A stretch of DNA of 64,000 nt. Source: Symsagittifera roscoffensis (lineage: Eukaryota). A model generated the notes under the pieces. That model saw only the letters and a list, made by a program, of their open reading frames with translations. It was not told the DNA's origin and ran no database searches. Each line of letters opens with the position of its first letter. The stretch's first letter is position 1. A program made the translations under genes and the position numbers. Where the stretch lies: NCBI RefSeq assembly GCF_963678635.1, contig NC_087064.1:32617028-32681027 (forward strand). The letters are read 5' to 3'. Below are positions 3,363 through 22,643 of the stretch, piece after piece.

Positions 3363-4395
3363 AGGGCGGATTTAAGGTAAATGGCGGACGCCCACCTCAG
3401 GGTTTCGACCCCTCGGCAACGAAAGGGCCCTAGTTTGCAATTATTTGGTGAGCTACATCTTCGGCCGACCAACCCTAAATTTTTTCAAACTAAATTATAC
3501 AAATTATAATATTTTGTGTGGCCTTAACAATATACAATATCTGGTAAACACGTTTTCTATATTCCCGTTCGACCAAAACAATCCTATCCGATTTCTATTT
3601 CAATTCTTTTAAGGGAAATTACGGTTAATAGGCTTATTTTGCTATTGGCTGATTTCGCCATTGGCTTATTTTAGTACTTTGTTTCAATTCTTACCTACCC
3701 CGCACTTCTCAAGAGAAGAGCATTTCAACTTCTATGGAAGAACACAAAGCCAATATATACTAATTTTGAAGGGGTGCTCGAGCCGAAAAAAAAATTCAAT
3801 TTTGTGGTCAAAATATTTTTTAGAAAAAAGTCCGAAAACGGCGTCTCTTTGGTCAAAAAAAGTTGTTATAATGTTCTGCGAGCGCCTGAAAAATCAATTT
3901 GTTCAAGCTAAAAAAGTTCAGCTAAAATTTAAAATTTTTAAATATCCGACCCAGGGGCGGATCAAGGATTTTCTCGAGGGGGGGGGGGGCGTATTTTCAA
4001 AATTTGTTCGAAATTTTGTCGACCTTTTTTTTAGGTCGACTGAATTGAGCTCTCCCTACGCACAGTTTAGTCCCTGTTTTAGGCAAAGTTTCTGCGCCGC
4101 AGGCAAAATTTTGAAAAGCAGTCCAAAACAGGCGTTTTTGGCACTTTGTGGAAAAATTTGACCAAGTTGCGTTTTTTTGGCGCGCGCGCCCCCCTCAAAA
4201 TTAGTATATATTGGAGCCAAAGGCGCCTTTAGAAAAATTTTAGGGTCGGTCGGCCAAAAATGGATTTCTTAAAAAGTACCAAAGGGGGGACCCTTTGGGT
4301 CGGCAAGGGGTCGAATCCCTGAAGGAAAGCATATGCCCCTCCCGCCCCCCCCCCCCCCTAAATCCGCCCCTGATCCGACCCCTTCGAGAAAATCC
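3363..4395. mobile_element. Cluster of related MITE fragments forming a ~1-kb foldback structure. One full ~390-bp copy lies at ~3941-4335, with inverted partial fragments at 3363-3485 and 4340-4395.
   Basis: 3363-3485 (GGGCGGATTTAAGG...CAGGGTTTCGACCCCTCGGCAACGAAAGGGCCC...GGCCGACCAACCCTAAA) is the reverse-complement counterpart of 4230-4335 (AGGGTCGGTCGGCC...GGGTCGGCAAGGGGTCGAATCCCTGAAGG). Poly-G/poly-C tracts and a GGCGCGCGCGCC core are present. ORF 3661-4161 runs through the repeat and is judged spurious. Confidence 0.55.
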
Positions 4396-5175: not shown

Positions 5176-6075
5176 TGATTCCTTCTTTTGTTTCGCCATT
5201 ACATTTAATACCTACATTTTTTCTTCTTTAAAAAATGACTTGTTCGACTGCAATTCATCGCTTCTGGCAAAAATAATTTGGAAATTTTATATTTGAATGA
5301 TTTTTGTATAATTATATTTACATAATAATTATCTTCATTAGTAACCAAAATAAAATACATTTAAAAACCATTTAAATAGAAAAACCTCTGACACCAAAAA
5401 ATTTATTTAACGCCACGCTATCTTTACCAAATTTTTTAGGAGCAAAATAGCTAAGAAACCAACCAAAAGTTTGGTCCAATTAAAAAGTTTGCCCGACCTT
5501 CGTGGCTAAAAGTTGTCACTGATTCTGTTCATTTTTAAAGTCTTTTGGTACCTTTTGTACCTTTTTGAATTACTCTTAAAAATTTTAGATACTGCTGCCG
5601 GACGCTGCTTTGATATAATTGACAAAAAATGGTTTATATATGTTAAACCACTATTTTAATTTTAGAAGCTCTGAATTCAAGCGATAAATCCAAAGTTTTT
5701 TGACAAAAAAGTTTCAGAAAGAAACAGTTAATCATCTGACAACTTCGAATTGGAAATTAACTCTAATGAAAGCTTTCAAAAAGACTGAAATTTTAAATTG
5801 ACACTATTGGTTACATAATTTTAAAGGTCTGAGGTTAGAAATTTAAAATCTGAAATTTGAAGAGGCGACAAAAATCTCATCAGAGTGAATACTATTTTTT
5901 CATGTTTTTTATCCTCTTACCTACAAGATTCAGATTTAAGATATTGAGATGAGTGACATTATAAGATGTTTTGCATTAAAATAATGCAAAAAACGTAGTT
6001 CAAGAGAAAAAGCTGGTACGTTTTTCAAAAAAGTCAAACTGGGTTATAAGAACTAATTTTATTAGCGTGCACCAA
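5176..6075 (+). repeat. Unit 1 of a local tandem duplication
   Basis: 5176-6075 aligns with 6521-7533 (GATTCCTTCTTTTGTT...GCAATTCATCGCTTCTG...TAGCTAAGAAACCAACC...GTCACTGAT...GCGTGCACC). The MITE copy at 6085-6478 is inserted after unit 1 and is absent after unit 2. Confidence 0.55.
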
Positions 6076-6084
6076 CGCCCCCTC

Positions 6085-6478
6085 CTTCCCTCAGGGATTC
6101 GACACCCTGCCGACCCAAAGGGTCCCCCCTTTGGTACTTTTTAAGAAATCCATTTTTGGCCGACCGACCTTAAAATTATTCTAAAGGCGTCTTTGGCGCC
6201 AATATTTACTAATTTTGAGGGGGGAGCGCGCGCCAAAAAAACGCAATTTTTTGGTCAAAATTTTCCAAAAAGTGCCTAAAAACGCCTTTTTTTGACTGAT
6301 TTTTTCAAAAACTTGCCTACGGCGCAGAAAATTTTGCCAAAATAGGGACAAAACAGTGCTTTGGGAGAGCTCAAAAAATCAATTTGGTCGACCTAAAAAA
6401 AAGGTCGGCAAAATTTTCGATTTCTTTTTGAAAATCCGCCCCCCCCCCCACCTCGAGAGAACCCTAGATCAGCCCCTG
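6085..6478 (-). mobile_element. Second full copy of the same ~390-bp MITE-like element, in inverted orientation
   Basis: Reverse complement of 3941-4335 over nearly its whole length (CCCTCAGGGATTCGACACCCTGCCGACCCAAAGGGTCCCCCC...GAAAATCCGCCCCCCCCCCC). It sits exactly between the two units of the local tandem duplication. Confidence 0.6.
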
Positions 6479-7622: not shown

Positions 7623-7627
7623 ACAGG
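7623..7627. other. Target-site duplication ACAGG flanking the BEL/Pao element (left copy)
   Basis: ACAGG lies immediately before the LTR start TGTGGCGCAC at 7628. The identical ACAGG follows the other LTR end (...GCGCGAACA) at 17475-17479. Confidence 0.7.
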
Positions 7628-7924
7628 TGTGGCGCACTCTCGTATCCTGTAAGATCTAAAAAACCTGGTTCAACATCTGTAAATTATCGGCAATTTAAAC
7701 AGATAGTATGACAATATAAAGATAATATAAAATAAGGCAAACATCTTCCGGTTAACATGTTATCAAACGGTTTTTTCCACAATCTCAAAAATCTATAAAC
7801 ATTTTGATGGCAAACTGACCTTAATCGGACAAACCAGTAGTTTTCAAGGCCTTTTGTCTAAGCAAATCTTTTTTAGCTTTTTCACTTTCGCGCCATAATG
7901 ACGTCATTAATTTAAGCGCAAACA
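7628..7924 (-). repeat. 3' LTR in element orientation, 297 bp
   Basis: TGTGGCGCACTCTCGTATCCTGTAAGATC...CATAATGACGTCATTAATTTAAGCGCAAACA. Five differences from the other LTR copy. Confidence 0.85.
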
Positions 7925-8316
7925 TCTTCCGCGCCCAAAGGAGCAAAAACGGGTGCGAGTTTTACGGCCGGTCGAGTTAGCTCCCCGGAGCGGGTGGTAA
8001 CTACGGCGGATCGGGCTATGTTGTCTTTTCCGTAATTAAGGGTTTTTATACGAGCCAGAGGGTAGTGTCCCCTTGGGTTGCGTTCGTCAACAATCCACAC
8101 TAAATCCCCTGTTTTTAAAATAACGTCACTATCGGAGTGCCACTTACTGCGTTTATTCAGCGCTGGCACATAATCTCGCAGCCAACGACTCCAAATTGCG
8201 TTGGCGTAGCTTTGCGCTCGGATATATTGCTTTCGATGGTCGAAGTGCTCCTGGAAAGAGAGAGAAGGAAAGCTAGTACCATTTCGGCCTAACAAAAAAT
8301 GATTAGGAGTTAACAC
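7912..8316 (-). pseudogene. Integrase C-terminal segment of BEL pol, shifted in frame from the main pol ORF
   Basis: 134 aa: MLTPNHFLLGRNG...DLVWIVDERNPRGHYPLARI...; continues the DDE integrase that ends the 1017-aa ORF in another frame. Stop lies just inside the LTR. Confidence 0.6.
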
Positions 8317-8429
8317 CTCGAAACCATCCAGACTTGCACTTACTGATGTTATAGGTCGAGCGTTCAGTGATTGTTCTACAAGACAGAAAGTTGTTTCAAG
8401 GACTTCGGGAGTGAGCTTTCTACTTCCTA

Positions 8430-11400
8430 TTATTGCGTAGCATACCCTTTTACAACACCGAACGAGACGTTCCCAAGAACCCCTGTGATGCGGGGCTGCC
8501 GGGGGTTAAATTTCCACTTAATACCCTTTTTCGCCAGCTCTGGGGGTGCTTGATCGTTCCACGACTGAATACAATTTAAGAGTTCTTTCTCGGCTCCCAC
8601 AAAATTGGTGCCGTTATCAGACCAAATGACTGATGGAGTGCCGCGACGGGCTATGAATGTTTCGATTCCCATTACACACGAACTCGTGTCCATGGATGAG
8701 ACAATCTCAATATGTACAGCTCTGGTGGTCATACATGTAAAAAGGAAGCACCATCGTTTTTCAGAACTCCTCCTGATTGAGACGTAAAAGGGTCCAAAGT
8801 AATCAACACCACAGTTTGTGAAGGGAGGCTGGCGGTAACCAAGCCTTTCAACTGGAAGCTCTGCCATCATAGGTGTGACAGTTTTGGCTTTGCGCTTCCT
8901 ACATATAAGGCAGTGGACTTCAATGGACTTCAATAAAGAGCGAAGGTTCAAGATTGCGAACTCTAAGTGAATTACAGCTCGCAGGTAGTCTAAGAACTGG
9001 TGCTGATAGCGATAATGAATATCACTTACGAACAATTTCACCAAAGAATGCCTTCCATCAAGGATTATGGGGTGTTTTGTGTCATATTCAGTTTCAACTA
9101 GGCGGCGAATTCGCCCAGTTGAACGAATGAGGAATGCAGGACCCATAAACGGTGCATACTGTGCAATACGACTAGACTTTTTGACGTTTTTGTTGCAGGA
9201 CAGGAGTAAATATTCCGCTTCAAAAGATTCCTTTTGGGAAATTAACAAAAGTCGTTGTTTGGCGGTTTCTAATTCAACCGGATCGGTTATTTCCTTGACT
9301 TTAGTGCGGTAGTGCCGGTGTTTCGGACTAAGTCTGAGCATGAAGGCAACCACTCGCTGGAGTTTACGAAACGAGCTGAACTTTTCCCATGCAAATAAAA
9401 TGGGTTGTTTTTGTTTTTGTGCAACGTTTGAAAAATTAGAGGCCTGCTGTAAACCTTCATTAAGGTCACAAGCGGGACCAGCCAGGCGGATTTTCTTAAG
9501 TATTTCTATGCTCGGCTTGAAAGGCCACTCGCCACTTTTCAGCAGACTTGGCCCGTTCACCCAGCTGCTTGTTTTTAAGGACTCCGCTGAGATTCCTCTG
9601 GTTCCCGTATCAGCAGGGTTGTCTCCACTTAAGACATGAAACCACTGATCTACGGTCGTACTTTCTAGAATCTCTCCAATCCGGTTTGCCACGAACGTGG
9701 GTTGCTTACTACCTGAGTTTAACCACTGGAGCACAGTGGTGCTGTCAGTCCACATGAACGTGTTTGACACAGGAATGGTTAGAGCTTTGAGGACATCTTC
9801 CTTCAAGCGGGTAGCGAGTAACGCGGCCTGCAGTTCAAGCTTCGGGATGGAAAGCGCTTTCATGGGCGCCACTCTTGCTTTTCCAAAGACGAAGGCAACT
9901 TGTGTTTCGAGTGAAGTTTTCACACGGGCGCGAAGAAAAGCTACAGCACAAAAAATTTCTTCTGAGCTGTCACCGAACATGTGTAACTCAACCCAATCGA
10001 CTGGTGCGGAGAAGTAGCTGCGCTTTATACTCATTTTCCCTAGAGATGGCAAACCAGAGTGCCAGGCAAGAAATTTTGTCTTGATATCAACGGGTAGCTG
10101 ATCATCCCATTGTTGACCATGAATGCGCCAGATTTCTTTCAACAATAATCGGGCTCTTACGGTATAGGGCGCTACGAGACCTATGGGGTCGAAAACGGAA
10201 GAAACAAAACTTAACACTGTTCGCTGTGTTATCGAATTTTTAAGTTCACGGTTGACACCACGGCTTACGACCAAAGTGTCGTCAATATGGTCCCACTTCA
10301 GACCAAGAACATGAGAAGAATTATCCCCACAAGTTACAATATTTTTACTTTCCTGTTGCGGCGCGCTTTGGGGCGGGTTTAACTCTTTATTAATTTTAGC
10401 TACGTTACTTATGAATTTAGTTAATTTAAAACCACCTAGAGCTAACAGAGTAATCAACTCTTGACTCATTTTAAATGCAACATCAGGGTCCTCAAAGGAG
10501 TCAAGGTAGTCGTCCATATAAAATTTCTCTAGAACTGCGGATGCTGCGTCAGGGAACATCGCCTGATTATCCATTGCAGTCCGTTGCAATGCATAATTTG
10601 CACACGTTGGCGAATCTCTCGCTCCAAAGATATGTCTGGTGTACTGGTGTACAACCACATCGGCTGTGGGGTCCTCCCGCCACAGAAAACGAAGAGATGG
10701 TTGGTCCTCTGGAAGGACGCCGACTTGTAGGAACATCCCTTCAATGTCAGCCGATACGGCAAAATGATGTTGACGAAAACGGAGGAGAACGAACACAAGG
10801 TTTTGCAGTAGGTCGGGTCCTACTAGCAACGATTTGTTCAATGACGTACCATGGAATTTAGACGCTCCGTTAAGGACACGCCTCACTTTACCAGGTTTGT
10901 TTGGGTTCACCACGGGATGGTGGGGAAGATACCACTCGCGTATGCTGCGGTTCGAAAAATTATGGGGAGGAACTTGAATCACGTATCCTTTACTCAAATC
11001 ATCTTCGATAGTTTTTGAGTATTGATCCCTTAAGTGAGGATCTTTCGCTAAACGTTTTTCCAACGATTTTAACTGAACCAAAGAGGAATAGTAATTATCT
11101 GGTAACATGATAGATTCTTCTGCCCAAAGCATACCTACAACGTATCTTGATCCATCGTGGACGGTGGAGGAATCAAGTATTTTAGCCGCCCTTTTGTCTT
11201 CGGCTGAACGGGAATCAACCTGTTTGTAGGCTCCGTATGACTCTATTTCATACCAGCGTTTGATTTGACAAGCTAGTTCGGTATCATCCGTATTGCACTT
11301 GAAACAAGTAGAAAGGAAACCAGTAGATGTCGGCATTGGGCCGCTCAAGACCCAGCCTATTGGAAGGCGAACCGCGACGGGCGATGTGTTTGGATCGGCC

Positions 11401-11483
11401 TCACTCTTGAAATACTCCTCAGGCCGAATAGCATGGAAGGAGTCTTGACCAATTATTAAGTCTACATCGGCGTAGCTATACAC
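8430..11483 (-). CDS. BEL/Pao pol: protease C-terminal region, reverse transcriptase, RNase H and integrase core
   Basis: 1017-aa ORF. Motifs: VDLIIGQDSFHAI...VAVRLPIGWVLSGP (Peptidase A17/DUF1758 region), FYMDDYL (RT), GDSSEE...TDSTTVLQWL (RNase H), HIEIVS...WSDNGTNFVG (integrase DDE). Confidence 0.85.
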   Translation of the reverse strand: MYSYADVDLIIGQDSFHAIRPEEYFKSEADPNTSPVAVRLPIGWVLSGPMPTSTGFLSTCFKCNTDDTELACQIKRWYEIESYGAYKQVDSRSAEDKRAAKILDSSTVHDGSRYVVGMLWAEESIMLPDNYYSSLVQLKSLEKRLAKDPHLRDQYSKTIEDDLSKGYVIQVPPHNFSNRSIREWYLPHHPVVNPNKPGKVRRVLNGASKFHGTSLNKSLLVGPDLLQNLVFVLLRFRQHHFAVSADIEGMFLQVGVLPEDQPSLRFLWREDPTADVVVHQYTRHIFGARDSPTCANYALQRTAMDNQAMFPDAASAVLEKFYMDDYLDSFEDPDVAFKMSQELITLLALGGFKLTKFISNVAKINKELNPPQSAPQQESKNIVTCGDNSSHVLGLKWDHIDDTLVVSRGVNRELKNSITQRTVLSFVSSVFDPIGLVAPYTVRARLLLKEIWRIHGQQWDDQLPVDIKTKFLAWHSGLPSLGKMSIKRSYFSAPVDWVELHMFGDSSEEIFCAVAFLRARVKTSLETQVAFVFGKARVAPMKALSIPKLELQAALLATRLKEDVLKALTIPVSNTFMWTDSTTVLQWLNSGSKQPTFVANRIGEILESTTVDQWFHVLSGDNPADTGTRGISAESLKTSSWVNGPSLLKSGEWPFKPSIEILKKIRLAGPACDLNEGLQQASNFSNVAQKQKQPILFAWEKFSSFRKLQRVVAFMLRLSPKHRHYRTKVKEITDPVELETAKQRLLLISQKESFEAEYLLLSCNKNVKKSSRIAQYAPFMGPAFLIRSTGRIRRLVETEYDTKHPIILDGRHSLVKLFVSDIHYRYQHQFLDYLRAVIHLEFAILNLRSLLKSIEVHCLICRKRKAKTVTPMMAELPVERLGYRQPPFTNCGVDYFGPFYVSIRRSSEKRWCFLFTCMTTRAVHIEIVSSMDTSSCVMGIETFIARRGTPSVIWSDNGTNFVGAEKELLNCIQSWNDQAPPELAKKGIKWKFNPRQPRITGVLGNVSFGVVKGYATQ

Positions 11484-14311
11484 AATTGGTTTGATTGGAG
11501 CAAGGTACGGATACTTGCAGGGATGTTGACGGTATCGGTACCGACTTTAAGTTCATCCTTGACAAATGCGGTTAATTCGAATATGTATTCGAATCCATCG
11601 AAGTTAGAAGATACCTTCATCTGAACTTGTTTCGTTTTAACAACAGTCGTTGTGTTAATACCATTTACTGTGAGATCCAAATCTCTTCCTGAGAGATTCA
11701 GACATTTGACTAATTTAGCCGATATCCAGGAATGACTAGATGCTGAGTCACACAATGTTAAACAATCAGCACTCTGGAAATCGGTGGAAACTTGGAGCTT
11801 GATTATGGGCAGTAACCCTTTCGATGTTATGATTGATGATTGGTCGTTCGAGATTGCGCAACTTACATCCAACGGAACGGGATTAATGTCTGCATGATTC
11901 GAACTTGCGTTTGGTATATTCTTGCTGAATGATTTTCGATCAGCGTTTGTGCTCGCTTTATCCGGCTCTGCATTAGATCTTGGTTGACCAGCGTTGGGTC
12001 TTGTATGGCTATCATTTTTGTCCGGATTTCGACTAGGAAAAACACGTTCAGCCCCATGGAGAAGTACACTATGGGTGCTAGTGCAACCTGGTTTGGTGCA
12101 TTTCTTTGCTCTGGGACATTGCCGGAATGCGTGGTTCCCTTGTAAGCAGGAGAAGCACAATTTGTTTTCCGCAGAGAATTTTGCACGTTGTGTTGGAGTT
12201 TTCTCCTTAAACACAGAACACTTCCACAAGGCATGTTTCCCCTTGCAGAGGATACAAGAAGGATATTCAAACTTTTTCTCAACTGTACTTGTCGAGGCAA
12301 AAACTCTCGTTACAGCTTTAGTTTTGGATGGCTCTTCGACTTTGGGCTTTCCAGGCATATTTTTCATTTGCTCATGAGCTTCTGCTTTATCCTTTAACCA
12401 ATTGTTAAAGTCAATTAGGTTGGGGCGTGACCAATTACGTTTCACGACAAAAAGTGACCACGATTCTCTCATGTTTGGTGGAATTTTCGAAAGAGCTTGA
12501 TTTAACAAAGAGACGCTTTTCAAATCTTCTTCATAATCAAGAGACCTAAAGACAGCCACTAGACTTGAAATGGTCATCGAGAAGCTAATGATGTTCTCAG
12601 AGTTGTGCATTCGAAGCTGCGGGAAACTGGACAACTTATCAAGGTGGGCCGTAATTACGTTTTGTGGCTGGCCAAACTTTCTTTCTAGAGTTTTCAGAGC
12701 ATCTTTATACATTCTTCCATTGTATGCGAACTCTGCTATGGCTGACTTAGCTTTTCCCGTGACTAATGTTTTTAAATAAGTCAACTTCACATCATCGCTT
12801 AGGGACGCTGCGTCTACAGTACTGCAAAATTGGCCAAACCATTCGTGCCATTGGAGCGGGTTGCCATCGTACTGGGCCAGCTTCCATTCTGGAAGGGGAT
12901 CCTTCTTTGAGACTGACAGAGCTTGGACTAAGTCATTCAGTTTCACGGCTTGCGGTTGGGGAACTGGTTGCAACGACGGCAATGTGTTGCTAGGATCAGC
13001 TGCAAAAGGTTGCTGCTGATATATGTAAGTGTTTTCAGCCGATGCGTCGTGATTGGGAAACCCATAGTAAACGGTACCACCACTTGATACGTGGGGGAAT
13101 TGTTGCTGAGATATTGGCGTTACGGATGAAAAAACACCAACTGATGGGTTTGTGTTACCATCACTTGTTACCCCAGTGATGCATTGGGTGACTGCGGGTG
13201 TCCACTGTGACATTAGTGGCAAGTTGGGCTGACTAATAACGGCAGGCTGTCCGCTAAAAGGATTGTTCACTGACGCAGGGTTGCTATACACGTTATGTGA
13301 TAGCAAGTTTTGATTTCTGCAGATTAAATTTGCAGGTGGTTGTGACACAATGGCATGGGGGGTGTATCCAGAGTATTGATTGGAGATGGCGGGCATGTTT
13401 CCAACAACTCGGGAATCGTTATTGAAGTTGTTGACGGGGATATGTTGAATGGAAGACGAAGGATGAGGTACAGAGAAGTAACAGCATACCGGAGTATTGG
13501 TAGCTGCTGTTCCAGCTGGATTAAAAAATGATGATGTATTGTTTTCGCAAAGTGTAGCGTTATTGGAAATAAGCAACGACTGCGTTTCGTGCTCAGGATT
13601 AGTGGATACAGCGTGCTTGATTCCATCGCCATCGCTGAAGGAGACGGTTGGTTGATAGGGATAACATTGTTGATCACAATCAAAAGTCCGATTCGGCAAC
13701 GATCGCCGAGGTGAAGCTTCCGCTGTGGACACATTTCTGTGTTGATGCGAACCACTTTCTATATTTATACAGTTTTCAAACTTTGAAGAAGACGGAGCTA
13801 CCTTGGGTCCTTTTTGGTTTTCTAATGCATGATCAACCCAATCGTTTACCCTGTCAGAACGACGATCAACCGAAGACGCCAGCTTGAGATGCTGATCTAT
13901 TTCAGACTCTTCGAGGTATTCAGTTTCAACCATTTTTGCTTCAGCTACTTTAATACGATTTTCTTCGCTTAATCGTTCCATTTCAAGCCGACTTTTTTCG
14001 ATTCGTAAACGATGTTCTTGCTCTTTACGGTCAATTTCAAATTTAATTTCTTGTTGTTTTCGTTCCATCTCAATCAGATGCTGTTGCTCTTCGATGATGG
14101 CTTCCTGTTGTTTCAGTCTTAAGGTTGCTTCGTGTTGTTTTTCCAACTCTTCTCGCTTCATCTTTGCTAGGAGCAGCTCTTTGCGGCGCTCACTGGGGGT
14201 CAATGATTTCATTGAGCTTTGCTTACTCGACCCGGATTTTGCCGATTTTGATGAAACTTTTGATCGACTAGTTTCACTGACGCAGACCTCTGAAGCTTGA
14301 TTAGATTCCAT
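11462..14311 (-). CDS. BEL/Pao gag-protease polyprotein
   Basis: 949-aa ORF with a coiled-coil N-terminus and a Q/N/S-rich middle. Zinc knuckles CILCKGKHALWKC and CFSCLQGNHAFRQC. C-terminal aspartic-protease-like LTLCDSASSHSWIS, which is DSAS rather than the canonical DSGS. Overlaps the pol ORF by 22 nt in the -1 frame. Confidence 0.8.
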   Translation of the reverse strand: MESNQASEVCVSETSRSKVSSKSAKSGSSKQSSMKSLTPSERRKELLLAKMKREELEKQHEATLRLKQQEAIIEEQQHLIEMERKQQEIKFEIDRKEQEHRLRIEKSRLEMERLSEENRIKVAEAKMVETEYLEESEIDQHLKLASSVDRRSDRVNDWVDHALENQKGPKVAPSSSKFENCINIESGSHQHRNVSTAEASPRRSLPNRTFDCDQQCYPYQPTVSFSDGDGIKHAVSTNPEHETQSLLISNNATLCENNTSSFFNPAGTAATNTPVCCYFSVPHPSSSIQHIPVNNFNNDSRVVGNMPAISNQYSGYTPHAIVSQPPANLICRNQNLLSHNVYSNPASVNNPFSGQPAVISQPNLPLMSQWTPAVTQCITGVTSDGNTNPSVGVFSSVTPISQQQFPHVSSGGTVYYGFPNHDASAENTYIYQQQPFAADPSNTLPSLQPVPQPQAVKLNDLVQALSVSKKDPLPEWKLAQYDGNPLQWHEWFGQFCSTVDAASLSDDVKLTYLKTLVTGKAKSAIAEFAYNGRMYKDALKTLERKFGQPQNVITAHLDKLSSFPQLRMHNSENIISFSMTISSLVAVFRSLDYEEDLKSVSLLNQALSKIPPNMRESWSLFVVKRNWSRPNLIDFNNWLKDKAEAHEQMKNMPGKPKVEEPSKTKAVTRVFASTSTVEKKFEYPSCILCKGKHALWKCSVFKEKTPTQRAKFSAENKLCFSCLQGNHAFRQCPRAKKCTKPGCTSTHSVLLHGAERVFPSRNPDKNDSHTRPNAGQPRSNAEPDKASTNADRKSFSKNIPNASSNHADINPVPLDVSCAISNDQSSIITSKGLLPIIKLQVSTDFQSADCLTLCDSASSHSWISAKLVKCLNLSGRDLDLTVNGINTTTVVKTKQVQMKVSSNFDGFEYIFELTAFVKDELKVGTDTVNIPASIRTLLQSNQLCIATPM

Positions 14312-14771
14312 ATGAGCGCGAGCCTTACCAGTTACTTCATCGTTAACTTTAACTATCCTATCCCATCATGCAGCCAACTCCGTTAATAATTTGCTATGGT
14401 TATCGGTTTTATTAGCTAATATCACAAGTTCATCATTTTTAGCTAATGCTTTTTCGAGAATACTCTTGCAAGATTCAATTAAGGCGTTTATTTTTGTTTT
14501 CCGAATTGGTCCCTCTAAACAGTTATGCGACTGTGAACTGCGGAAAGCTCATTTTCTAGTGATGTTCGACCATTCATCAATCGTCGATATTTTAACTCAA
14601 TTTGTTCTGTCATTTTGATTACTTTTAAACTTGTTCACTTCTACTCAACCGCTCAACTGCTCAGTTTGAGAGAAAAAAAAGGGGAATAATTAATTTAAGA
14701 CCTTATATTTAGTATTAATAAATTATATTCTGACTCATTAAACAATATCACACCTTAGAGAAGCAATTTAT

Positions 14772-15371
14772 TTAACTCCTAGTGCTGCTCAGCATTTCTT
14801 CTGTTTCGATTAGCTTGCGTTTTCCTGGCTTAGGAGTATTTTTCTTTGCAATAATATACTTCAAATTCTTGCTATAACGCCTAAGGATCGTAAACGTTTT
14901 CAGTTCTAGAGAGGGATCCTGGTGTAGTTCTAAGTACTTTTGCCCTAACTCAGTGAGGTTCTGCTTCCTTCTAGATATCAGGTCTGTTACTATATTAATA
15001 ACTAATATACCTGACTCTTTCAACTTACTATATATATCTTCCGTGCCTACACGTTTAAAGTAAACGATTGCATAAATATTGCGTTTATAGTTTAAAAGAA
15101 TCTTCTTAAGCTGGTTAGGAGTTAGTGCGTTAAAGTTATTACTACGGTGTCGACTAATAGAGTTATTAACAGCGTCGTGCCAAATAACAATGTCGGTTCG
15201 GTTTAAGAGATAGTGATCAAGTTGATACTGACAAGTTTTACGGACGTTCACTGCGTTATGGTTGAAACTTAACCCGGGAATGGCTAAGCACGATGGAGAT
15301 ACACGCTTTTGCGAAGCGGGGGACAGTTTTTTCAAAGCGTGGTGCAGCGAGCTAGCAGCTAGTATGAACAT
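14772..15371 (-). CDS. Extra 199-aa ORF of unknown function in the BEL leader, between the 5' LTR/tandem array and gag
   Basis: MFILAASSLHHALKKLSPASQKRVSPSCLAIPGLSFNHNAVNVRK...; same strand as gag-pol. No motif I recognise. Not expected in canonical BEL/Pao elements. Confidence 0.3.
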   Translation of the reverse strand: MFILAASSLHHALKKLSPASQKRVSPSCLAIPGLSFNHNAVNVRKTCQYQLDHYLLNRTDIVIWHDAVNNSISRHRSNNFNALTPNQLKKILLNYKRNIYAIVYFKRVGTEDIYSKLKESGILVINIVTDLISRRKQNLTELGQKYLELHQDPSLELKTFTILRRYSKNLKYIIAKKNTPKPGKRKLIETEEMLSSTRS

Positions 15372-15539
15372 TTAGTGATTTAAATCAACTTAAGAGGGAG
15401 GGAATCAAGCAAACCGCGACCTGACCTCCCGCAACACCCTGAGCTAACAAGGTTGTAGCAAAAGGTAAGACGATTTGCTTAATAATACGCTACGGGTCTC
15501 GACTACGGCTACTTTTATCCAATTGAACTAGTTTAGATA

Positions 15540-15900
15540 GCTGCACCACGTTTCAAGAATAAAGACGGCGTTTTTCAGAATTTTTTTTTTTTCGAAAATT
15601 TCGGATTTTTTCCGAAAATTTTCCAAAAATTTTTTTTTTCGATTTTTTTTACGAAAATTTTTTCCACGTTTTCACCCAACGGTTCAAGTTCCAACAATAA
15701 CCTGATGCGTTTGCGAAATTTTGAATTTTTTTTTTTAAGTCCAAAACTTGGGGCAAAAAACTCGACTCGGTCGTTTAAATTAAATTATTATGAAACTAGG
15801 CGCTTTGCTGAATAATTTGCAAAACTTTAAAATTTTGGAAAAAAAAAATCAAAAATTTTCAATTTTTATTTTCAAAATTTTTGATCTTTTTTTCGATACG
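15540..15900. repeat. AT-rich low-complexity tract within the BEL leader
   Basis: Degenerate repeats of TTTTCCGAAAATTTTCC / TTTTTCGAAAATTT. Confidence 0.6.
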
Positions 15901-16194
15901 GTGTTGAGCTTACAAACAAGGTGTTAGGATAACGTAATTAAGGTTTATGAGGCCGGTTTTTTCCTAAACCCACAGAAAATTTTCTGATCGGGTTTTGGTA
16001 TCGAGAAAAATTGGGGGTTACTATTTTGCCATCAAAAAACCTCGTATTAGAATTTAAAGCATCAAATCAGCAAGTTAGCACAAATGGATAAAGTTTTGGT
16101 TTTTTAGTCTTACAAGTTTTGTAGAGGCGTTCACCGGTAGAATCCAAATTCCACAGAAAACGTCCACAATCCACAATCAGGATACCTGAAAAGG

Positions 16195-17135
16195 CCTCCC
16201 CTTCTCCTAACTGGGACGTTTCGGACAATCGGGTCTTTTCGGACAATCGGGTCGTTTCGTCCAATTGGGTCGTTTCGGCCAATTGGTCACCTTCTGACAA
16301 TTTTTGGCTAATTGGACACTTCTGGCCAATTCGGCATCTTCGGGCCACTTTCGGCTTTTGCACAATTTCAGCCAATTGGGTCAAGTTTGGACAAATGTCG
16401 ACTAATTGGACAATTTTGGCCAATTCGGATACTTCAGGGCAACTTTCGGCTAATTGCACAATTTCGGCCAATTGGGTCGTGTTTGGACAAATATCGGATA
16501 ATTGGACACTTTCGGCCAATTGGGATACTTTAGGGCAACTTTCAGCTAATTGCACAATTTCGGCCAATTGCGTCGTGTTTGGACAAATTTCGGCTAATTG
16601 CACAATTCCGGCCAATTGGGTCGTGTTTGGACAAATGTCGGCTAATTGCACAATTTCGGCCAATTGGGTCGTGTTTGGACAAATTTCGGCTAATTGCACA
16701 ATTTCGGCCAATTGGGTCGTGTTTGGACAATTTTCGGCTAATTGCACAATTTCGGCCAATTGGGTCGTGTTTGGACAAATTTCGGCTAATTGCACAATTT
16801 CGGCCAATTGGGTCGTGTTTGGACAATTTTCGGCTAATTGCACAATTTCGGGCAATTGGGTCGTGTTTCGACAAATATCGGCTAATTGGACACTTTCGGC
16901 CAATTGGGTCGTCTCTGGTAAAATTTCGGCTAATTGGTCACTTTCGGCCAATTGGGTTGTGTTTGGGCAAATTTCGGCTAATTAGTCATTTTCGGCCAAT
17001 TGGCTTGTGTTTGGGCAAATTTCGGCTAATTAGTCACTTTCGGCCAATTGGGTTGTTTGGGCAATTTTCGATTTATTGCACACTTTCGGCCAATTGGGTC
17101 GTACTGTCCGGAATATCGTCCTGAAAATCCTCTGG
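16195..17135. repeat. Tandem array of a 48-bp unit (24-bp sub-repeat), about 19 copies, inside the BEL leader
   Basis: Unit CGGCCAATTGGGTCGTGTTTGGACAAATTTCGGCTAATTGCACAATTT repeats with 48-nt phase. Because the period is divisible by 3, long open frames appear on both strands (for example 16067-16951 minus, 294 aa, QLAEIVQLAENCPNTT repeats). Confidence 0.85.
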
Positions 17136-17153
17136 AATATCGTCCGGAATATC

Positions 17154-17173
17154 GAGTCCGGGTCAGCGGACCA
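17154..17173 (-). promoter_or_regulatory. Putative primer-binding site of the BEL element
   Basis: In element orientation the 5' LTR ends ...CCACA and is followed by TTT then TGGTCCGCTGACCCGGACTC. This TGG-initiated stretch could pair with a tRNA 3' CCA end. No match to a specific tRNA was checked. Confidence 0.3.
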
Positions 17174-17176
17174 AAA

Positions 17177-17474
17177 TGTGGCGCACTCTCGTATCCTGTA
17201 AGATCTAAAAAACCTGGTTCAACATCTGTAAATTATCGGCAATTTAAACAGATAATATGACAATATAAAGATAATATAAAATAAGGCAAACATCTTCCGG
17301 TTAACATGTTATCAAACGGTTTTTTCCACAATCTCAAAAATCTATAAACATTTTGATGGCAAACTGACCTTAATCGGACAAACCAGTAGTTTTTAAGGCC
17401 TTTTGTCTAAGCAAATCTAATTTTAGCTTTTTCACTTTCGCGCCATAATGACGTCATTAATTTAAGCGCGAACA
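17177..17474 (-). repeat. 5' LTR in element orientation, 298 bp
   Basis: Same sequence as 7628-7924, followed by the ACAGG target-site duplication at 17475-17479. Confidence 0.85.
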
Positions 17475-19121
17475 ACAGGAAAAAACCAAGTAGCACAGAA
17501 TGTTCTGACCATAGTTTTAACAAACACAACAAAACTTTTTTTTCAAATTAGTATTGTTTTATTTTCGGTGTGTGTGACAAAAAAAGCTAATGGAAAAACT
17601 ATAATCGGGTATATTCGACAATCAAAGTAAATTAAGCGTATTGAAAATCAAAGTTTTCAACGAAAAAAGATTAAAAAAACGAAATAAAAAATTTAAAAAA
17701 ACTTCAAAAAGTTTTGTTTTCAGTTTTTTCAATTTTTGATGTTTTTGATTCCGAAAAAGGCGGTAAAATCATCAAAAAACTAACGTTACTCAAGCTACAC
17801 TAAGTTTCTATACTCTAAGTTAAAATTTTTAAAAAATTTTAAGCCATTTAAATAAGCAGTTGTAAGCCCGCTCACTCGCTTCAATCGCTCAAATTAAGAA
17901 GAAAAACCAAAAGTTTGAAGTCGGTTTCTCTCGACACTGGGAAAAAATTTTTGAATTTATTTAATGTCGTTCGAAATACGGCTGTAATGGCTTTATTATA
18001 AAATATCACTCAACTTTCTCCGATGATTGTTTGTGGTAGCTGACTTTGTGAGGAAAAAGGAAAAAAAAGGAAAAAACTAAAACACCCGAATACAAAGTTC
18101 CTTACCATTTCCCATTTTTCAAATGGTCGGAACAACAATTTGCTTCTCTATAATGAGGAAAATTTTGATTAGAAGAATGAAATGTATTACAGGTAATTTT
18201 TCTCAGGTGTTATTTGCTTTTAGGTGAGTATTTATTTCTCCTACTCATAGGATCTCCTGTTATCTACTCGGTACCGTTAATTCATGGTAAAAGAAATTGT
18301 ATTTCATGTTTTCAAAGCTTTGAAATGTTTTTACTGAAATCTTTACGGCAAGCTCATGAGTCGGAAAGCAAACATCTTTGTAGTTTCATGAAAATATTTG
18401 GTAGTCAAAAAAGAAAGTTTAAGATTGCTAATAATTCAAAAAATACGAGCAAGAAATACGCGCATCTCCAGTCGACACTTGCAATAATTGCCATGGCCAG
18501 TTTCAACTGCTATCTGAAAGTTACACTAAGGTCCGACTTGGTCTTTGTAGCCCGATCAAACGAATCGGTTGTCGTTATAGAAAAATTTGGTCAGCGCTTT
18601 TTATTGCAATACACTGGCCAGCTTCAGCTAATCGGAATTCAAAAACAATGTCAATTTTGTGATTTCTAAAACAATTTTGAGTTTTGAGATCTACCTAATT
18701 GTCTGGCTTTTCTGTAATAATTTGTTTTTGACTAATTTTTCTACGCTTTTTGAGATTCTAGTTGTACATCGTAGATAAACCTTTTACACTAAATTGGACA
18801 CAAGTTACACATCATTTAATCCATGTTAATTTGAAAGAGCACGGAAGAACAGATGGTGTTTGAAAATTATCCAACACCAGCTAATTTCTTTCTACTCAAG
18901 AAAAAGGATTGTGAAGTTCTTATTTAACGCACTCAACTCAACTTCTAACACACTCAACACACTGCCCCAAGGATAGATGTCTAAGGCAGTTTGAAATTCT
19001 TGAGACAAAAAAAATTTTTGGGTGTCAGTATTGCAGTGATTCATATTGCAGTGATTCGCGTGAACTTTCATCTAAATGTGTAACTAATAACGAAAGAGAT
19101 AACTTCATAAACTGTAGGACC

Positions 19122-19796
19122 ATGATGCAAATGAACGAGAAAATTGAAAAAGAGAGCGAGGGAATACAAGCACGTCTTGAAAATATGGAAAAAAGGCTGA
19201 CCGCATTGGTTGATGAAAAAGTCAAAAACGCTACAAAAACCACATGCGAAAAACTGGCAAAAAGCTATGCAGATGTACTCAGTGTGAAACCTGTTAAAGA
19301 TATGAAAGCTCAACCAGGAGCTGGAAAAGAAGTAAAACAAGAAATACATCAAAAAATCAATCAAAGCTTCCGTATACAGGGGATCAGAGAAGATCCCGAG
19401 AAATCAAAAGGCGAAAATTTTGTCCCCACAACCGCAAAAGTACATGAAGTACTAAACAAGTTAGGAGTTAAACCACAAATTGAAGAAATAAAAAGGCTAG
19501 GGAAATTCAGCAAAGAGCGCATCAAGTCAAGAACTTTATTAATAACTCTGTCAACGGAACATGAAGCACGATTGGTGCTGGCAAAGAGCTTCGAAAAAAG
19601 AGATGAGCTGCGAGATGAGGAAATTTACCTTCTGCCAGCATTATCGAAAGAAGATGCGAGGAAGGAAAACCTATGCTTTAAAAGACGAAGAGAACTTCTA
19701 GACGAAGGAGTTCCAAAGGAGAAAATCAAAATCAGGAAATTCGAGCTGTTCAATGATGGTAAAAAAAGAGATGATAGAAGCAGAACAAGCAGATGA
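19122..19796 (+). CDS. LINE ORF1 protein, 224 aa
   Basis: N-terminal heptad-rich MMQMNEKIEKESEGIQARLENMEKRLTALVDEK, then SFRIQGIRE...NFVPTTAKVHEVLNKLGV...RTLLITLSTEHEARLVLAKSF, resembling the L1 ORF1p RRM/CTD core. Confidence 0.65.
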   Translation: MMQMNEKIEKESEGIQARLENMEKRLTALVDEKVKNATKTTCEKLAKSYADVLSVKPVKDMKAQPGAGKEVKQEIHQKINQSFRIQGIREDPEKSKGENFVPTTAKVHEVLNKLGVKPQIEEIKRLGKFSKERIKSRTLLITLSTEHEARLVLAKSFEKRDELRDEEIYLLPALSKEDARKENLCFKRRRELLDEGVPKEKIKIRKFELFNDGKKRDDRSRTSR

Positions 19797-19827
19797 TGCT
19801 TGACTAGGCTTTCTCAACATCCTGCAA

Positions 19828-20658
19828 ATGAATGTAAGAAGTCTCATAAATCTCGAACGACGAATGAAGTTTGCAAATGCTATAGCAACATCAAACTATG
19901 ACATAATATGTCTCTGCGAGACTTGGTTAAATGAAAACATTGCAGCATCTGAAATAATGCTAAATGAATACAGTATTTATAGATCAGAACGACAAACAGC
20001 CAAAGATCAAAATTTGCACGGTGGAGTACTAATGGCAGTGAAACAAACATTTTCATCTAAATTGTTGCCAAATAAGCAACCTGAATGTTGTTTAACTTGC
20101 CGCATCCAAATAAACGATAAACGAATTATTGTCTGCTGTTTTTACAATCCACCTTCGAGCAGCAAATATTGCTATTGTCTAGGCGATTTCGCACAAATTT
20201 TAAATGAAATCGAGAAATCAAATCAATCAACTGCAACACTTATTTGCGGAGATGTAAATTTTCCAAATGCAAACTGGATTGACTATAGTAGCACGGAAAA
20301 TGAAGAAAACTCAATAATTGAACTAATCGAGCAACATCAGTTCGAGCAGGCAATAAATTTTCCAACTTGTGGCAAAAACATCCTAGACATTACATTATTC
20401 AAAAATTGTCACATTCATGCGACTCCTGACAAAAAATTTTCAAAAATTTACAATTGCTCCGACCACAAAGCAATCAGCATTCTAATTGAATGTCCTCACC
20501 ATGAGGTAAAGGTCGCTATTGAAAACTTTCGAAGCTTCGGTAGCGTGGACTATAACGAAATCAAGAAATCAATACTAAGTGAGCCTTTCTCACCAGTATG
20601 TCACACAAACATCAATAGAATGTGCGAGGAATTTACGACTATTTGGAAAATTTGTTAA
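19828..20658 (+). pseudogene. LINE ORF2 N-terminal part: apurinic/apyrimidinic-type endonuclease
   Basis: MNVRSLINLERRMKF...YDIICLCETWLNENI...GGVLMAV...ICGDVNFPNANW...CSDHKAI, matching the EEP/APE endonuclease signature. Frame is broken at ~20622-20658 before the RT. Confidence 0.75.
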
Positions 20659-22643
20659 ACCAACATGTGGCTAGAAGAACGAGACGTCGCCAATCACTTC
20701 CGCCATTGGTTACGCCAAGTACCTCAAACATCATGAACAAACTGCGAACACAAACTAGAATATACAAATTGAAACCTACAAGCTACCGCAGAAATCTCAT
20801 TCTATCTCTACATAAAATGATGGAAGAAGCAGTAGAGGAAGATAGAGTAAATTATCAGGAAAATTTGATGTCCACTCGTAACACCCATTTAATTTTCAAA
20901 CACTTTAAGAGTCTGAAAAAATCAGAAACTCTCCCAAAGACTATGATCAAGGACGAAATAGCTGTTTCCAAAGCCAAAGAAAAAGTGAACTTTTTGAATG
21001 AATATTTTCACTCTGTATTTTCGCCCAAATCAAGCTTCAACCTCAGTGACATGAAATGCGAAAACACGATATTGAGTAACTTCAGTATCTCAAAAACATA
21101 TTTAAACCAAATTATAACAGAGCTGGACATAACAAAATCGCGGGGCCCAGATGGACTCCCACCAATTTTCTTCCAGCGAACGGCCAGAGAAATGACCACA
21201 GTTTTGCATTGGGTTTTTAAAAACATCAAGAGGTTAAGGAAAATACCAGATAAATGGAAAGTTGCGGCTTTGTCACCTATTTGCAAGAAAGGTGACAAAC
21301 GACTAATGAAAAACTACCGGCCGGTGTCACTCCTCAATATCATGAGTAAACTCCTGGAAAAATGCATGCATCCAGCGTTGTATGACCATTTCATCAAATT
21401 TCTCACAAGAAGTCGGCACGGTTTTGTTAAAAACCGTTCAAGTGTTACAAACATGTTATCTTTCTTGAAAGAAATCTACGAAGCAATTGACAAGAACGCT
21501 GAAAACCATGTGATCGCATTATCTACCGACTTCTCTAAGGCATTCGACAAAGTCCCGCATTACGAACTACTAAAGAAAATGAGCAACCTTGGAGTTGGAG
21601 GCTGTTTCCTTGAAATAATCGCCGACTATCTCAGCAACAGGAAACAATTTGTTCGTGCTGACAATTTCTCATCAGAAACTTTAGAAATTACAAGTGGCGC
21701 ACCACAAGGATCGTTGATTGGTCCATTATTCTTCTGTATCTTCATAAATGATCTTCCTGAAGTATTGAAATTTAGTGACCCATTTATCTTTGCAGACGAC
21801 CTAAAATTACTAGCAGTGAATGAAGACACAAAGGACATCCAGCAGGACCTAAAAAGCGTTGAAAACTGGGTAGATAAAAACAAGATGAGTCTGGCACTGG
21901 ACAAATGTTTTAAAGTCGAATTTATAGGAAATCAACACGAATTTATTCTTTGTGAAACAGCAGTGGAAAGCTCGAATGTGATAAAGGATCTAGGAATACA
22001 TGTGTCCAAACATTTAACACGGACAACCCATATTGACTCAAGAATGTCGAAAGCGAATAAAACGTTCTATTGCATCCGCAGAAACTTAGAATTCAAAGTC
22101 AAAATGCGCATAAAACTTGGTCTGTACAAATCGTTAATACTTCCTGTTCTAACGTATGGTATAATTATTTGCAATATCTCAAGAAGCGACTTAGGGAGAT
22201 TAGAAAGGTTCCAAAAGAAAGTCTTAAAATGGATCACGGGAAACGATTCTGACTATACAGAGCAGCTGAGATTGTTAAACATCCTGCCTCTGGCGTTGTT
22301 TCTCCAGCTGAACGAGTTACTGATGATGGCAAAATTCATGCATGAAGAAAGCGATCACATTAAGCTCCCGGCAAAAATTGAAAATCCAGGAAGAACGAAA
22401 GAAATTTTCAACCTAAACAAGACCAGAACTGAAAAAACTGGAGGAGAGTTTACATTCAGGACCTGCCGTCTAATAAACCGACTAAATCAGAAAATTGAAT
22501 TTCGAGAAATGCGAGGCTTAAAGCGAAGATTGATACAGATGATGTGGAAATTTTTCGACGATCAATTCTCAGAACAAAACAAGTGCACATGGGTCCTCTT
22601 CTGTGACTGCAACATGTGCCGAAATAACTGGACAAAATTTTGA
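20622..22643 (+). pseudogene. LINE ORF2 reverse transcriptase and C-terminal Cys-rich region
   Basis: ALSTDFSKAFDKVPH (RT box 2-3), GAPQGSLIGPLFFCIFINDL, FADDLKLL (YxDD box), C-terminal CTWVLFCDCNMC. Confidence 0.8.

Follow-up and report, generated by a model that had tools for sequence, protein, structure and literature searches.

The locus described here raises the question whether a long, gene-bearing leader is a regular part of a retrotransposon or an accident of a single copy. In a stretch of 64,000 nucleotides from the acoel Symsagittifera roscoffensis (Xenacoelomorpha; contig NC_087064.1, positions 32,617,028 to 32,681,027 of the forward strand; referred to below as the window), one copy of a BEL/Pao long terminal repeat (LTR) retrotransposon is present on the minus strand, and between its 5' LTR and gag there are a tandem array, an AT-rich tract and a same-strand open reading frame (ORF) of 199 amino acids (aa), which we call ORF0. 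An earlier reading, made from the sequence only, had judged this leader to be unusual for BEL/Pao, as indeed it is, and had offered three explanations of the ORF: a lineage-specific accessory gene, a captured host fragment or a nested insertion. Our comparisons support the first of these. The leader is a normal feature of the family and is not private to the window copy; in ORF0 the elements have a genuine accessory gene, retained over a long time, and we consider it likely that this gene is family-wide, under selection and possessed of an SGNH fold. Taken alone, the window copy is an ordinary insertion, young by its LTRs (98.3% identity) but already dead.

Related loci (designated L001, L002 and so on) were drawn from ENA metagenome assemblies, in which host DNA is evidently present. 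The family of the window element itself occurs in samples ERZ25878734 and ERZ25071366, and samples ERZ25074608 and ERZ25071359 hold more distant relatives, one of which has a pol 75% identical to a Convolutriloba macropyga protein. Through ORF0 proteins 97-98% identical to that of the window we reached 2 sister copies at other loci, L002 and L003, which have 5-bp target-site duplications of their own (TGGCT and TAAAA, respectively) and are collinear with the window copy from inside the array through to the 3' LTR, at 96.8% and 97.5% identity, respectively. Each carries the 12-bp, 48-bp and 18-bp arrays, the AT-rich tract, ORF0 and gag-pol, and the sole difference in layout among these copies is the number of 48-bp units (10.4, 15.4 and 17.4). 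An older relative, L004, is 79-86% identical and shows the same order, with the array in a 46/94-bp version; an AT-rich tract similar to that of the window is found in the divergent lineage L011. We also observed that the LTRs of the sister copies are 87-88% identical to those of the window copy, yet the internal regions are ~97% identical. This disparity suggests LTR swapping, or faster evolution of the LTRs, between subfamilies.

Read along the element strand (the minus strand of the window), the leader follows the 5' LTR (17177-17474, 298 bp) and opens with a sequence resembling a primer-binding site (PBS), TGGTCCGCTGACCCGGACTCGA (17152-17173), which lies 3 nt after the LTR and begins with TGG; tRNA and Rfam scans of the window and the fetched loci found no tRNA gene that could be matched to it. 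Three tandem arrays, delimited with Tandem Repeats Finder, come next: a 12-bp array of 4.1 copies (17106-17154), the 48-bp array of 17.4 copies with 84% matches (16273-17102) and an 18-bp array of 4.2 copies (16212-16286). These are followed by a unique part (15901-16211) that is collinear with L002 and L003 at ~97% identity, by the AT-rich low-complexity tract that had been noted earlier (15571-15900; GC content 0.20-0.31 at 15600-15899), by a proximal leader (15372-15570) in which the pyrimidine tract TTCCCTCCCTCTTAAG precedes the start codon of ORF0 by 20 nt, by ORF0 itself (14772-15371, called from an ATG start and encoding 199 aa, as first described), and by an ORF0-gag spacer of 158 nt (14614-14771) that contains a polypyrimidine tract. 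In the window and in all sister copies gag starts at the ATG that stands at 14613 in the window (MTEQIELKYRRLMNG...), and this frame is open in L002 and L003. The leader is therefore 2563 bp long (17176-14614) rather than the 2.9 kb first proposed, and the excess of ~300 bp (14312-14613, minus strand) is damaged coding sequence for the N-terminus of gag, as recognized by comparison with L002 and L003.

The association of ORF0 with BEL/Pao extends well beyond this family. In addition to the window family (L001-L004), ORF0 lies upstream of a BEL/Pao gag in L006, in L007/L008, in L011 (whose sample is that of the window's contig) and in L013. The distance from ORF0 to gag in these 5 lineages is 160-500 nt, the gag is of the DUF1759 type, and ORF0 is 38-44% identical across the clade. 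Since the pol of the ORF0-bearing elements is 57-66% identical to that of the window family, versus 27-31% for BEL/Pao elements without ORF0 in L009 and L005, the ORF0-bearing elements form one pol clade, and the identities indicate that ORF0 has co-diverged with it. Nei-Gojobori estimates of the ratio of nonsynonymous to synonymous substitution (dN/dS) were ~0.1-0.3 for ORF0 between lineages; the comparison of L006 with L007 gave dN = 0.255 with dS ~2.5, that of L005 with L009 gave dN/dS = 0.32, and in deeper pairs dS was saturated, with dN at 0.5-0.66. Pairs within a family were nearer neutral, as expected of decay after insertion. These substitution patterns indicate that ORF0 is under purifying selection. 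The independent copies that keep ORF0, array and AT-rich tract collinear, the 5 lineages with ORF0 upstream of gag, and the purifying selection all bear out the reading of ORF0 as a lineage-specific accessory gene. The standard layout of the clade runs from the 5' LTR through the PBS, a variable tandem array, an AT-rich tract, ORF0 and a spacer of 160-500 nt to gag-pol and the 3' LTR. This bicistronic layout is shown to be conserved over the BEL/Pao clade, with a selected protein of predicted SGNH fold as its first cistron.

The protein family is large. A word-indexed search gave 141 ORF0 homologues, many 97-98% and many 40-48% identical, with a length of ~200 aa kept, and an exhaustive profile search of 1.84 billion cluster representatives gave 921 clusters (50% identity) at E <= 1e-3 and 615 at E <= 1e-10, nearly all of them of stand-alone proteins of ~200 aa. 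None of the 10 ORF0 clusters that were looked up had a name or a member from an annotated proteome. Annotation pipelines seem to miss ORF0 in a genome about half of which is LTR retrotransposons, because the protein lacks a Pfam match and the homologues listed include none that is named or NCBI-sourced.

Two loci showed further arrangements of the gene. A 2.2-kb LTR-ORF0 unit is tandemly duplicated in L006 (6600-10994; 98.4% identical), which gives 2 ORF0 genes and 3 LTRs in one element. L012 (4971-12231) carries a 264-aa ORF0 homologue (P0153) with no recognizable BEL/Pao or LINE (long interspersed nuclear element) genes nearby; upstream of it is a 3.6-kb array of 180-bp units (~20 copies) and downstream a 189-bp array (5.7 copies). 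This locus may be a non-autonomous derivative, or a site at which an element-borne array has expanded.

With regard to the array, the 48-bp unit reads ACGACCCAATTGGCCGAAATTGTGCAATTAGCCGAAATTTGTCCAAAC on the element strand and consists of 2 related half-units, each with CAATTRGCCGAAA; every unit also contains a palindromic CCAATTGG and a CAATTA core. The earlier count of about 19 copies is reached only if the whole tandem block of 943 bp is included, the array proper having 17.4. The label of satellite, which had also been applied to it, is not justified by the data, because, over the 64-kb window and ~260 kb of fetched loci, all occurrences of the 48-bp unit were in leaders of the window family. 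A genomic satellite was accordingly rejected as a candidate, there being no element-independent arrays in the same sequence. Several lineages have an array at the same place, directly downstream of the PBS, and the units are unrelated to one another, with lengths of 48 bp in the window family, 32 bp (9 copies) in L007/L008 and 10 bp (4.7 copies) in L006. L011 has no tandem array. We infer that the array is a tolerated, hypervariable segment of the 5' untranslated region (UTR), of a kind common in LTR retrotransposons, which may offer repeated protein-binding motifs in the form of the palindromic CCAATTGG.

It is possible, though doubtful, that the array is instead a functional cis-element (an enhancer, an insulator or a group of binding sites for proteins), or that small RNAs are produced from it or act on it. 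The recurrence of arrays at one and the same place in several lineages, irrespective of unit, is in keeping with such a function, as are the palindrome and the core present in each 48-bp unit, and precedents for functional UTR repeats exist in the array of Su(Hw) sites in the gypsy 5' UTR and in the repeats of the ZAM, Idefix and roo UTRs. On the other hand, the copy number is free to vary among near-identical copies, as noted above for the 3 sister loci, and the sequence is not conserved between lineages. A function tied to the sequence is made less plausible by the other lineages, in which the array is absent or exchanged for unrelated ones. Tandem repeats in the UTRs of LTR retrotransposons are, moreover, common and often neutral (PMC7004042).

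The 199-aa ORF had been described as having no recognizable domain. This holds at the sequence level, where Pfam gives no match, but not at the level of predicted structure. Modeling of the window protein with 26 relatives was confident, with a predicted local distance difference test (pLDDT) value of 85.5, and modeling of the family member P0060 (43% identical) with 50 relatives gave 91.1. The predicted fold is that of an SGNH/GDSL hydrolase, a three-layer alpha/beta/alpha arrangement with a five-stranded parallel sheet. Structures matched by the model include platelet-activating factor (PAF) acetylhydrolase, viral hemagglutinin-esterases, the OSK domain of Oskar, and the entries 3p94 and 2waa, the last 2 being chains that HHpred gave for the L2 and CR1 ORF1 esterases (PMC4120745).

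Conserved residues of the family, counted over 122 diverse representatives, fall in the right order for the fold and at the matching secondary-structure elements of the models. The sequence G5-A6-S7-S8-L9 comes right after strand 1 (S7 in 106/122), G33 follows strand 2 (106/122), the motif W-H-D-x-x-N-N-S follows strand 3 (H65 in 112/122, N69 in 100/122 and N70 in 110/122), and H150 is located in a C-terminal loop (110/122), where it is followed by P or Q, the pair H-P occurring in 52/122. We regard S7/S8, G33, N69/N70 and H150 as candidate active-site residues. The protein starts directly with strand 1 and stands alone, with no preceding coiled coil, and in most members it ends in a basic tail, RPKRPSKRARNAAKRA, that resembles a nuclear localization signal (NLS). 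An env-like role was considered for ORF0 and rejected: no transmembrane or coiled-coil segment is present, and strand 1 of the fold accounts for the hydrophobic N-terminus.

Several observations weigh against the reading of ORF0 as an SGNH hydrolase. A Pfam scan gave no match for the window protein, and none for 26 members even at E <= 10; a search of the family profile against PDB sequences at E <= 10 returned no SGNH chain and nothing relevant; hhalign of the family against E. coli TesA gave no match; and Foldseek of ORF0 against the PDB gave no significant match. The catalytic Asp expected three residues before H150 (DxxH) is not conserved, position 147 being K, R, S, Q or A, although D66 and E156 are other conserved acidic residues. 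The window protein, in addition, has a frame-shifted basic tail and an F at position 105, a place taken by C in alignment A1 with a conservation of at least 90%. Without the triad Asp, ORF0 could be a Ser-His dyad enzyme, or it could be non-catalytic in the manner of the OSK domain of Oskar. The chances that ORF0 is catalytically active appear to us to be evenly balanced.

By analogy with the LINE esterases discussed below, ORF0 would most likely act as an esterase or lipid-binding factor that aids the particle or the ribonucleoprotein (RNP) in its dealings with membranes or with lipid-modified partners. A stronger and more specific proposal, which we think rather improbable as a whole, is that ORF0 is catalytically active on lipid or acyl esters, that a hugely successful acoel BEL/Pao clade depends on it for replication, and that it has been exchanged between LTR elements and LINEs. 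Were it true, SGNH esterases in LINEs, Penelope-like elements, Vesta and BEL/Pao would make hydrolysis directed at membranes or lipids a general and repeatedly recruited step of retrotransposition, and a compact stand-alone enzyme of 200 aa would be at hand for testing such a lipid-directed step. A bicistronic RNA, possibly resolved by spliced-leader (SL) trans-splicing, would then also constitute a new expression strategy for LTR retrotransposons.

The main rival to an esterase or lipid-binding function is that the protein has the SGNH fold and is non-catalytic, acting as an RNA-binding or scaffold protein, like the OSK domain of Drosophila Oskar, that aids packaging or localization of the element RNA. 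We consider this unlikely, to about the same degree as the stronger proposal above. It would account for the missing triad Asp, for the conserved basic tail RPKRPSKRARNAAKRA and for the conserved basic residues K45, R107 and K158, and the turnover rate is low even in a LINE esterase (PMC3905857). Yet Ser, Gly, Asn and His are each retained in ~85-95% of the 122 representatives and H-P, the typical context of block V, is frequent, whereas SGNH-like proteins of the Oskar type are reported as having lost hydrolytic activity (PMC3905857).

ORF0 is also found outside LTR elements, as the first ORF of a LINE in L005, L009 and L010. In L005 and L009, which are 95% identical, ORF0 is followed by an ORF with a PHD finger and an RRM-like segment, a CCHC ORF, and an ORF2 of the APE-RT (apurinic/apyrimidinic endonuclease-reverse transcriptase) type. 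The 3 loci are independent insertions, with unrelated upstream flanks and a common 5' end ~50 nt before the ORF0 ATG. An exact 14-bp repeat in L009, TATAACCTCACGAA, at 9929-9942 and 15021-15034, encloses the whole LINE unit together with ORF0; a shared 14-bp word was found in 0 of 300 random segment pairs. Because this target duplication encloses it, ORF0 is an integral gene of that LINE. A separate feature of L005 is a 2449-bp tandem duplication (11115-16010; 99.96% identical) within the LINE, by which part of ORF1 and the APE region are doubled; it reflects either an error of assembly or a duplication that happened very recently.

The LINE-borne ORF0 proteins share 44-48% identity with that of the window (P0046, from L005, has 48%) and are as close to it as the BEL/Pao versions are to each other, from which it follows that ORF0 was exchanged at least once between an LTR element and a LINE. 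In a rough neighbor-joining tree the LINE-borne proteins fall among the BEL/Pao-borne ones; because this tree is star-like, it does not give the direction of transfer. One might propose that ORF0 is mainly a LINE gene that BEL/Pao acquired via template switching, and that it persists there without aiding the replication of BEL/Pao, either as a selfish passenger or by acting as a decoy or antagonist, for example against competing LINEs or host silencing. Esterases are classically domains of LINE ORF1, the family does provide the integral first ORF of a LINE, and the nesting in the tree implies an exchange, but we find the proposal quite improbable: the 7 sampled lineages comprise 5 of BEL/Pao, one LINE and one without assignable context, and ORF0 (38-44%) has co-diverged with pol (57-66%) over the BEL/Pao clade, which argues for long retention under selection in the LTR element.

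The remaining alternative, that leader, ORF0 and array are a nested insertion or captured fragment, private to the window copy or recent and functionless in its family, can draw on the atypical leader, on the lack of a Pfam domain in ORF0 and on the existence of BEL/Pao elements without ORF0 in related genomes (the upstream elements in L009 and L005), and is nonetheless extremely unlikely, because independent copies with their own target duplications keep the whole leader collinear, ORF0 holds the same place in 5 lineages of one pol clade with a between-lineage dN/dS well below 1 and its length of ~200 aa in hundreds of clusters, and neither a duplication nor a poly(A) stretch surrounds it. 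A non-LTR fragment nested in the leader is likewise ruled out by the lack of poly(A) and of a duplication around ORF0. The other copies retain the segment 14312-17176 collinearly, contrary to what the nested-insertion reading had envisaged, and the suggestion of a captured host fragment is unsupported in the sense of a recent or inert capture; the ultimate origin of ORF0 is likely to be an ancient capture of an SGNH gene.

How both cistrons might be expressed is suggested by their start contexts. The nucleotide at -3 of the ORF0 AUG is a pyrimidine in 6 of the 6 lineages examined (T in the window, a weak context), and the one at -3 of the downstream AUG is a purine in 5 of 6 (A at the window gag ATG). 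Leaky scanning would let both cistrons be translated, given the weak context of the ORF0 AUG, the scarcity of ATG within ORF0 and the purine at gag -3. The ATG counts are less favorable to this scheme than they first appear. ORF0 of the window family has 2 internal ATGs versus 5.6 expected, which is marginal (P = 0.054), and the non-array leader has 2 versus 9.9 expected, with the complementary CAT also rare at 4; the tandem array inflates the depletion seen in the leader. Because CAT is scarce as well, the depletion is not clearly strand-specific, and it argues only weakly for scanning.

As an alternative to leaky scanning, ORF0 and gag could be translated from separate cis- or trans-spliced mRNAs. 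A pyrimidine tract with AG precedes the AUG of both, the tract before gag being followed by CAG ~55 nt upstream of the ATG, and these sites could serve as splice acceptors in a host that practices SL trans-splicing. [quoted passage not shown] We also noted that the ORF0-gag spacers of L006 (10637-10960) and L007/L008 (10661-10990) contain three copies of a 24-nt motif, GTCCNNACTTNAYTGTNNGGTTGA, which is not present in the window family. The motif can form a 6-bp hairpin, with compensatory changes in some copies (CCGGAC/GTCCGG, CCAGAC/GTCTGG and CCAAAC/GTTTGG), and might be a packaging, dimerization or translation element.

The element as a whole is delimited by a perfect 5-bp duplication, ACAGG, directly outside both LTRs (7623-7627 at the 3' side of the element and 17475-17479 at the 5' side), as the sequence-only reading had reported; at fixed positions such a match has a chance of ~1/1024. 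The 3' LTR (7628-7924, minus strand, 297 bp) was identified in a repeat search as a direct repeat of the 5' LTR, and the pair is identical at 293/298 positions of a global alignment (98.3%; 4 mismatches and 1 indel), in agreement with the earlier estimate of ~98%. On the element strand the termini are TGTT...CACA. A polypurine tract, GGGCGCGGAAGA (7925-7936, minus strand), abuts the 3' LTR; it is conserved in L002 and L003 and has similar counterparts in L006 and L008 (GAGCCCGGAGGA and GGGCCCGGAGGA, respectively).

The coding region is on the minus strand and was assigned by Pfam: gag with the protease region (11462-14311; DUF1759 at aa 481-619 of the ORF, E = 4.7e-17), a pol piece (8430-11483) with Peptidase_A17 (E = 3.9e-41) and the integrase core rve (E = 4e-5), and a C-terminal pol piece (7912-8427) with DUF5641 (PF18701, E = 1.5e-21), whose stop codon is 11-13 nt inside the 3' LTR and which is frameshifted relative to the upstream pol ORF. 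DUF1759, Peptidase_A17, rve and DUF5641 thus occur in the order of BEL/Pao, RVT_1 is recorded for close homologues, and the direct TG...CA LTRs and the 5-bp duplication, which other copies likewise have, fit the same assignment; the identification as BEL/Pao that had been made before is confirmed. NCBI-annotated proteins of S. roscoffensis are 95-98% identical to the window pol region. The gag is itself unusual in that an extension of ~480-490 aa precedes DUF1759 (window 11462-14613, minus strand; L008 11039-12907). This N-terminal extension is rich in E, K, R and Q, is coiled-coil-like and has no Pfam match.

That the insertion is relatively recent is borne out by the young LTRs and the intact duplication; the copy, in contrast, is not intact. 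A nonsense codon (TGG>TGA) interrupts gag at ~14365, and frameshifts leave gag-pol broken into at least 4 pieces. The same locus in another assembly, L001, was found by exact-sequence look-up of the 199-aa protein and is 99.84% identical over 20.6 kb. It shares the nonsense codon and has a single ORF of 2055 aa. Relative to L001 the window has deletions of 4 bp (~14521), 1 bp (14089), 10 bp (~11519) and 1 bp (8506), of which the 10-bp deletion cuts the gag/protease ORF from pol. At 14089 the extra base belongs to the other assembly, since the window state matches that of L002 and L003. Over window positions 4788-25371 the 2 assemblies differ by 17 mismatches and 4 indels, 7 of these differences being in a LINE at 20877-21448 and the remainder in the BEL/Pao gag-pol; leader, array and unique flanks are free of differences. 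Because every difference falls in transposable-element sequence, the pattern is more suggestive of gene conversion, or of cross-talk between paralogous copies when the assembly consensus was built, than of ordinary allelic variation.

Comparison of the element with the rest of the 64-kb window by self-BLAST found no further copies of it. Three other features of the window may be mentioned. Outside the element, at a distance of 1.6 kb from its 5' LTR, is a non-LTR retrotransposon (19122-22643, plus strand), with a 224-aa ORF1 that has no Pfam match and is unrelated to ORF0, an APE ORF (Exo_endo_phos_2) and an RT ORF (RVT_1). The segment 25000-34000, probably one more degraded repeat, has a GC content of 0.40-0.42, versus ~0.35, and contains six ORFs of 151-238 aa on the minus strand, all of which lack a Pfam match. 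Next to the element, on the side of its 3' LTR, a repeat of ~390 bp is present as an inverted pair with 86% identity (3952-4327 and ~6070-6462).

Compared with canonical BEL/Pao elements (Pao, BEL, roo, Cer7-13, Sinbad and Suzu), the window family has the same TG...CA LTRs, the 5-bp duplication, and DUF1759, Peptidase_A17, RT/RNase H, integrase and DUF5641 in order in one long gag-pol frame; it differs in the 2.6-kb leader, the separate conserved 5' cistron and the coiled-coil-like gag extension of ~480 aa. Tandem repeats are likewise borne by the 5' UTRs of Drosophila gypsy, ZAM and roo. The arrays in the 3' UTR of plant Ogre/Tat elements (PMC7004042) resemble that of the window in that a short-unit array lies in an untranslated region and varies in copy number between copies, but in all of these elements the unit sequence is unrelated, and no expansion of the window array was seen beyond the element.

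In plants, Ogre has a conserved extra ORF, ORF1, located after the 5' LTR and before gag. The ORF0 of rice Retrosat2 (PMC3485330) occupies the same place. Both elements, however, are of the plant Ty3/gypsy group, and their proteins are unrelated ones without known fold. For the OSK domain of Oskar a lack of catalysis has been described (PMC3905857), but ORF0 retains the Ser, Gly, Asn and His.

Closer parallels are provided by the esterases of retroelements. An esterase (ES) domain is part of ORF1p in CR1, L2 and RTEX LINEs and in some Penelope-like elements (Kapitonov and Jurka 2003; structure of ZfL2-1, PMC3905857). The LINE ORF1p esterases hydrolyze p-nitrophenyl (pNP) acetate, bind acidic phospholipids, namely phosphatidic acid and phosphoinositides, float with liposomes, and have been proposed to take the RNP to membranes (PMC3905857). 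ORF0 is like them in its predicted SGNH fold, in the conserved Ser, Gly, Asn and His, and in being encoded upstream of the polymerase gene, and in L005 and L009 its homologues are the first ORF of a LINE that has a PHD-RRM-CCHC ORF1, upstream of APE-RT. It differs from them in that it is a stand-alone protein of ~200 aa with no coiled coil, separate from the RNA-binding ORF1 or gag, in that it shows no similarity at the level of hidden Markov models (HMMs) and does not conserve the triad Asp, and in that most of its occurrences are in LTR (BEL/Pao) elements. H191 and S228 of the ZfL2-1 esterase are termed "transposon-specific" residues (PMC3905857). H191 is four residues before N195, and in ORF0 H65 is four before N69, a spacing compared without direct alignment and therefore offered as a lead only; near the putative equivalent of the S228 region ORF0 conserves Y104 and C105.

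The Vesta LTR elements of bdelloid rotifers encode a GDSL esterase/lipase as ORF3, which is shared with other classes of retroelements and has been tentatively given a membrane-type role (PMC5408684). Here, too, an LTR retrotransposon has an SGNH accessory ORF with intact signature residues, of a type common to another retroelement class. Vesta, however, is a rotifer-specific, retrovirus-like LTR lineage from a different host phylum, and its ORF3 is downstream of pol whereas ORF0 is upstream of gag, so that Vesta ORF3 and ORF0 are probably independent captures. In the open full-text literature (Repbase and subscription journals lay outside this coverage) rotifer Vesta was the only LTR retrotransposon for which we found an esterase, and there was no report of one in BEL/Pao, nor of any LTR retrotransposon with a 5' esterase cistron. 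The ORF0 family, with the fold predicted for it, extends the association of retroelements with SGNH proteins to BEL/Pao, that is, to a new superfamily, a new position in the element and a new stand-alone protein family missed by profile libraries, and its sharing with a LINE is direct evidence of gene exchange between retroelement classes. As a small stand-alone protein, ORF0 is suited to biochemical work on why some retrotransposons carry an SGNH esterase and on the part that the LINE ORF1p esterase plays in retrotransposition.

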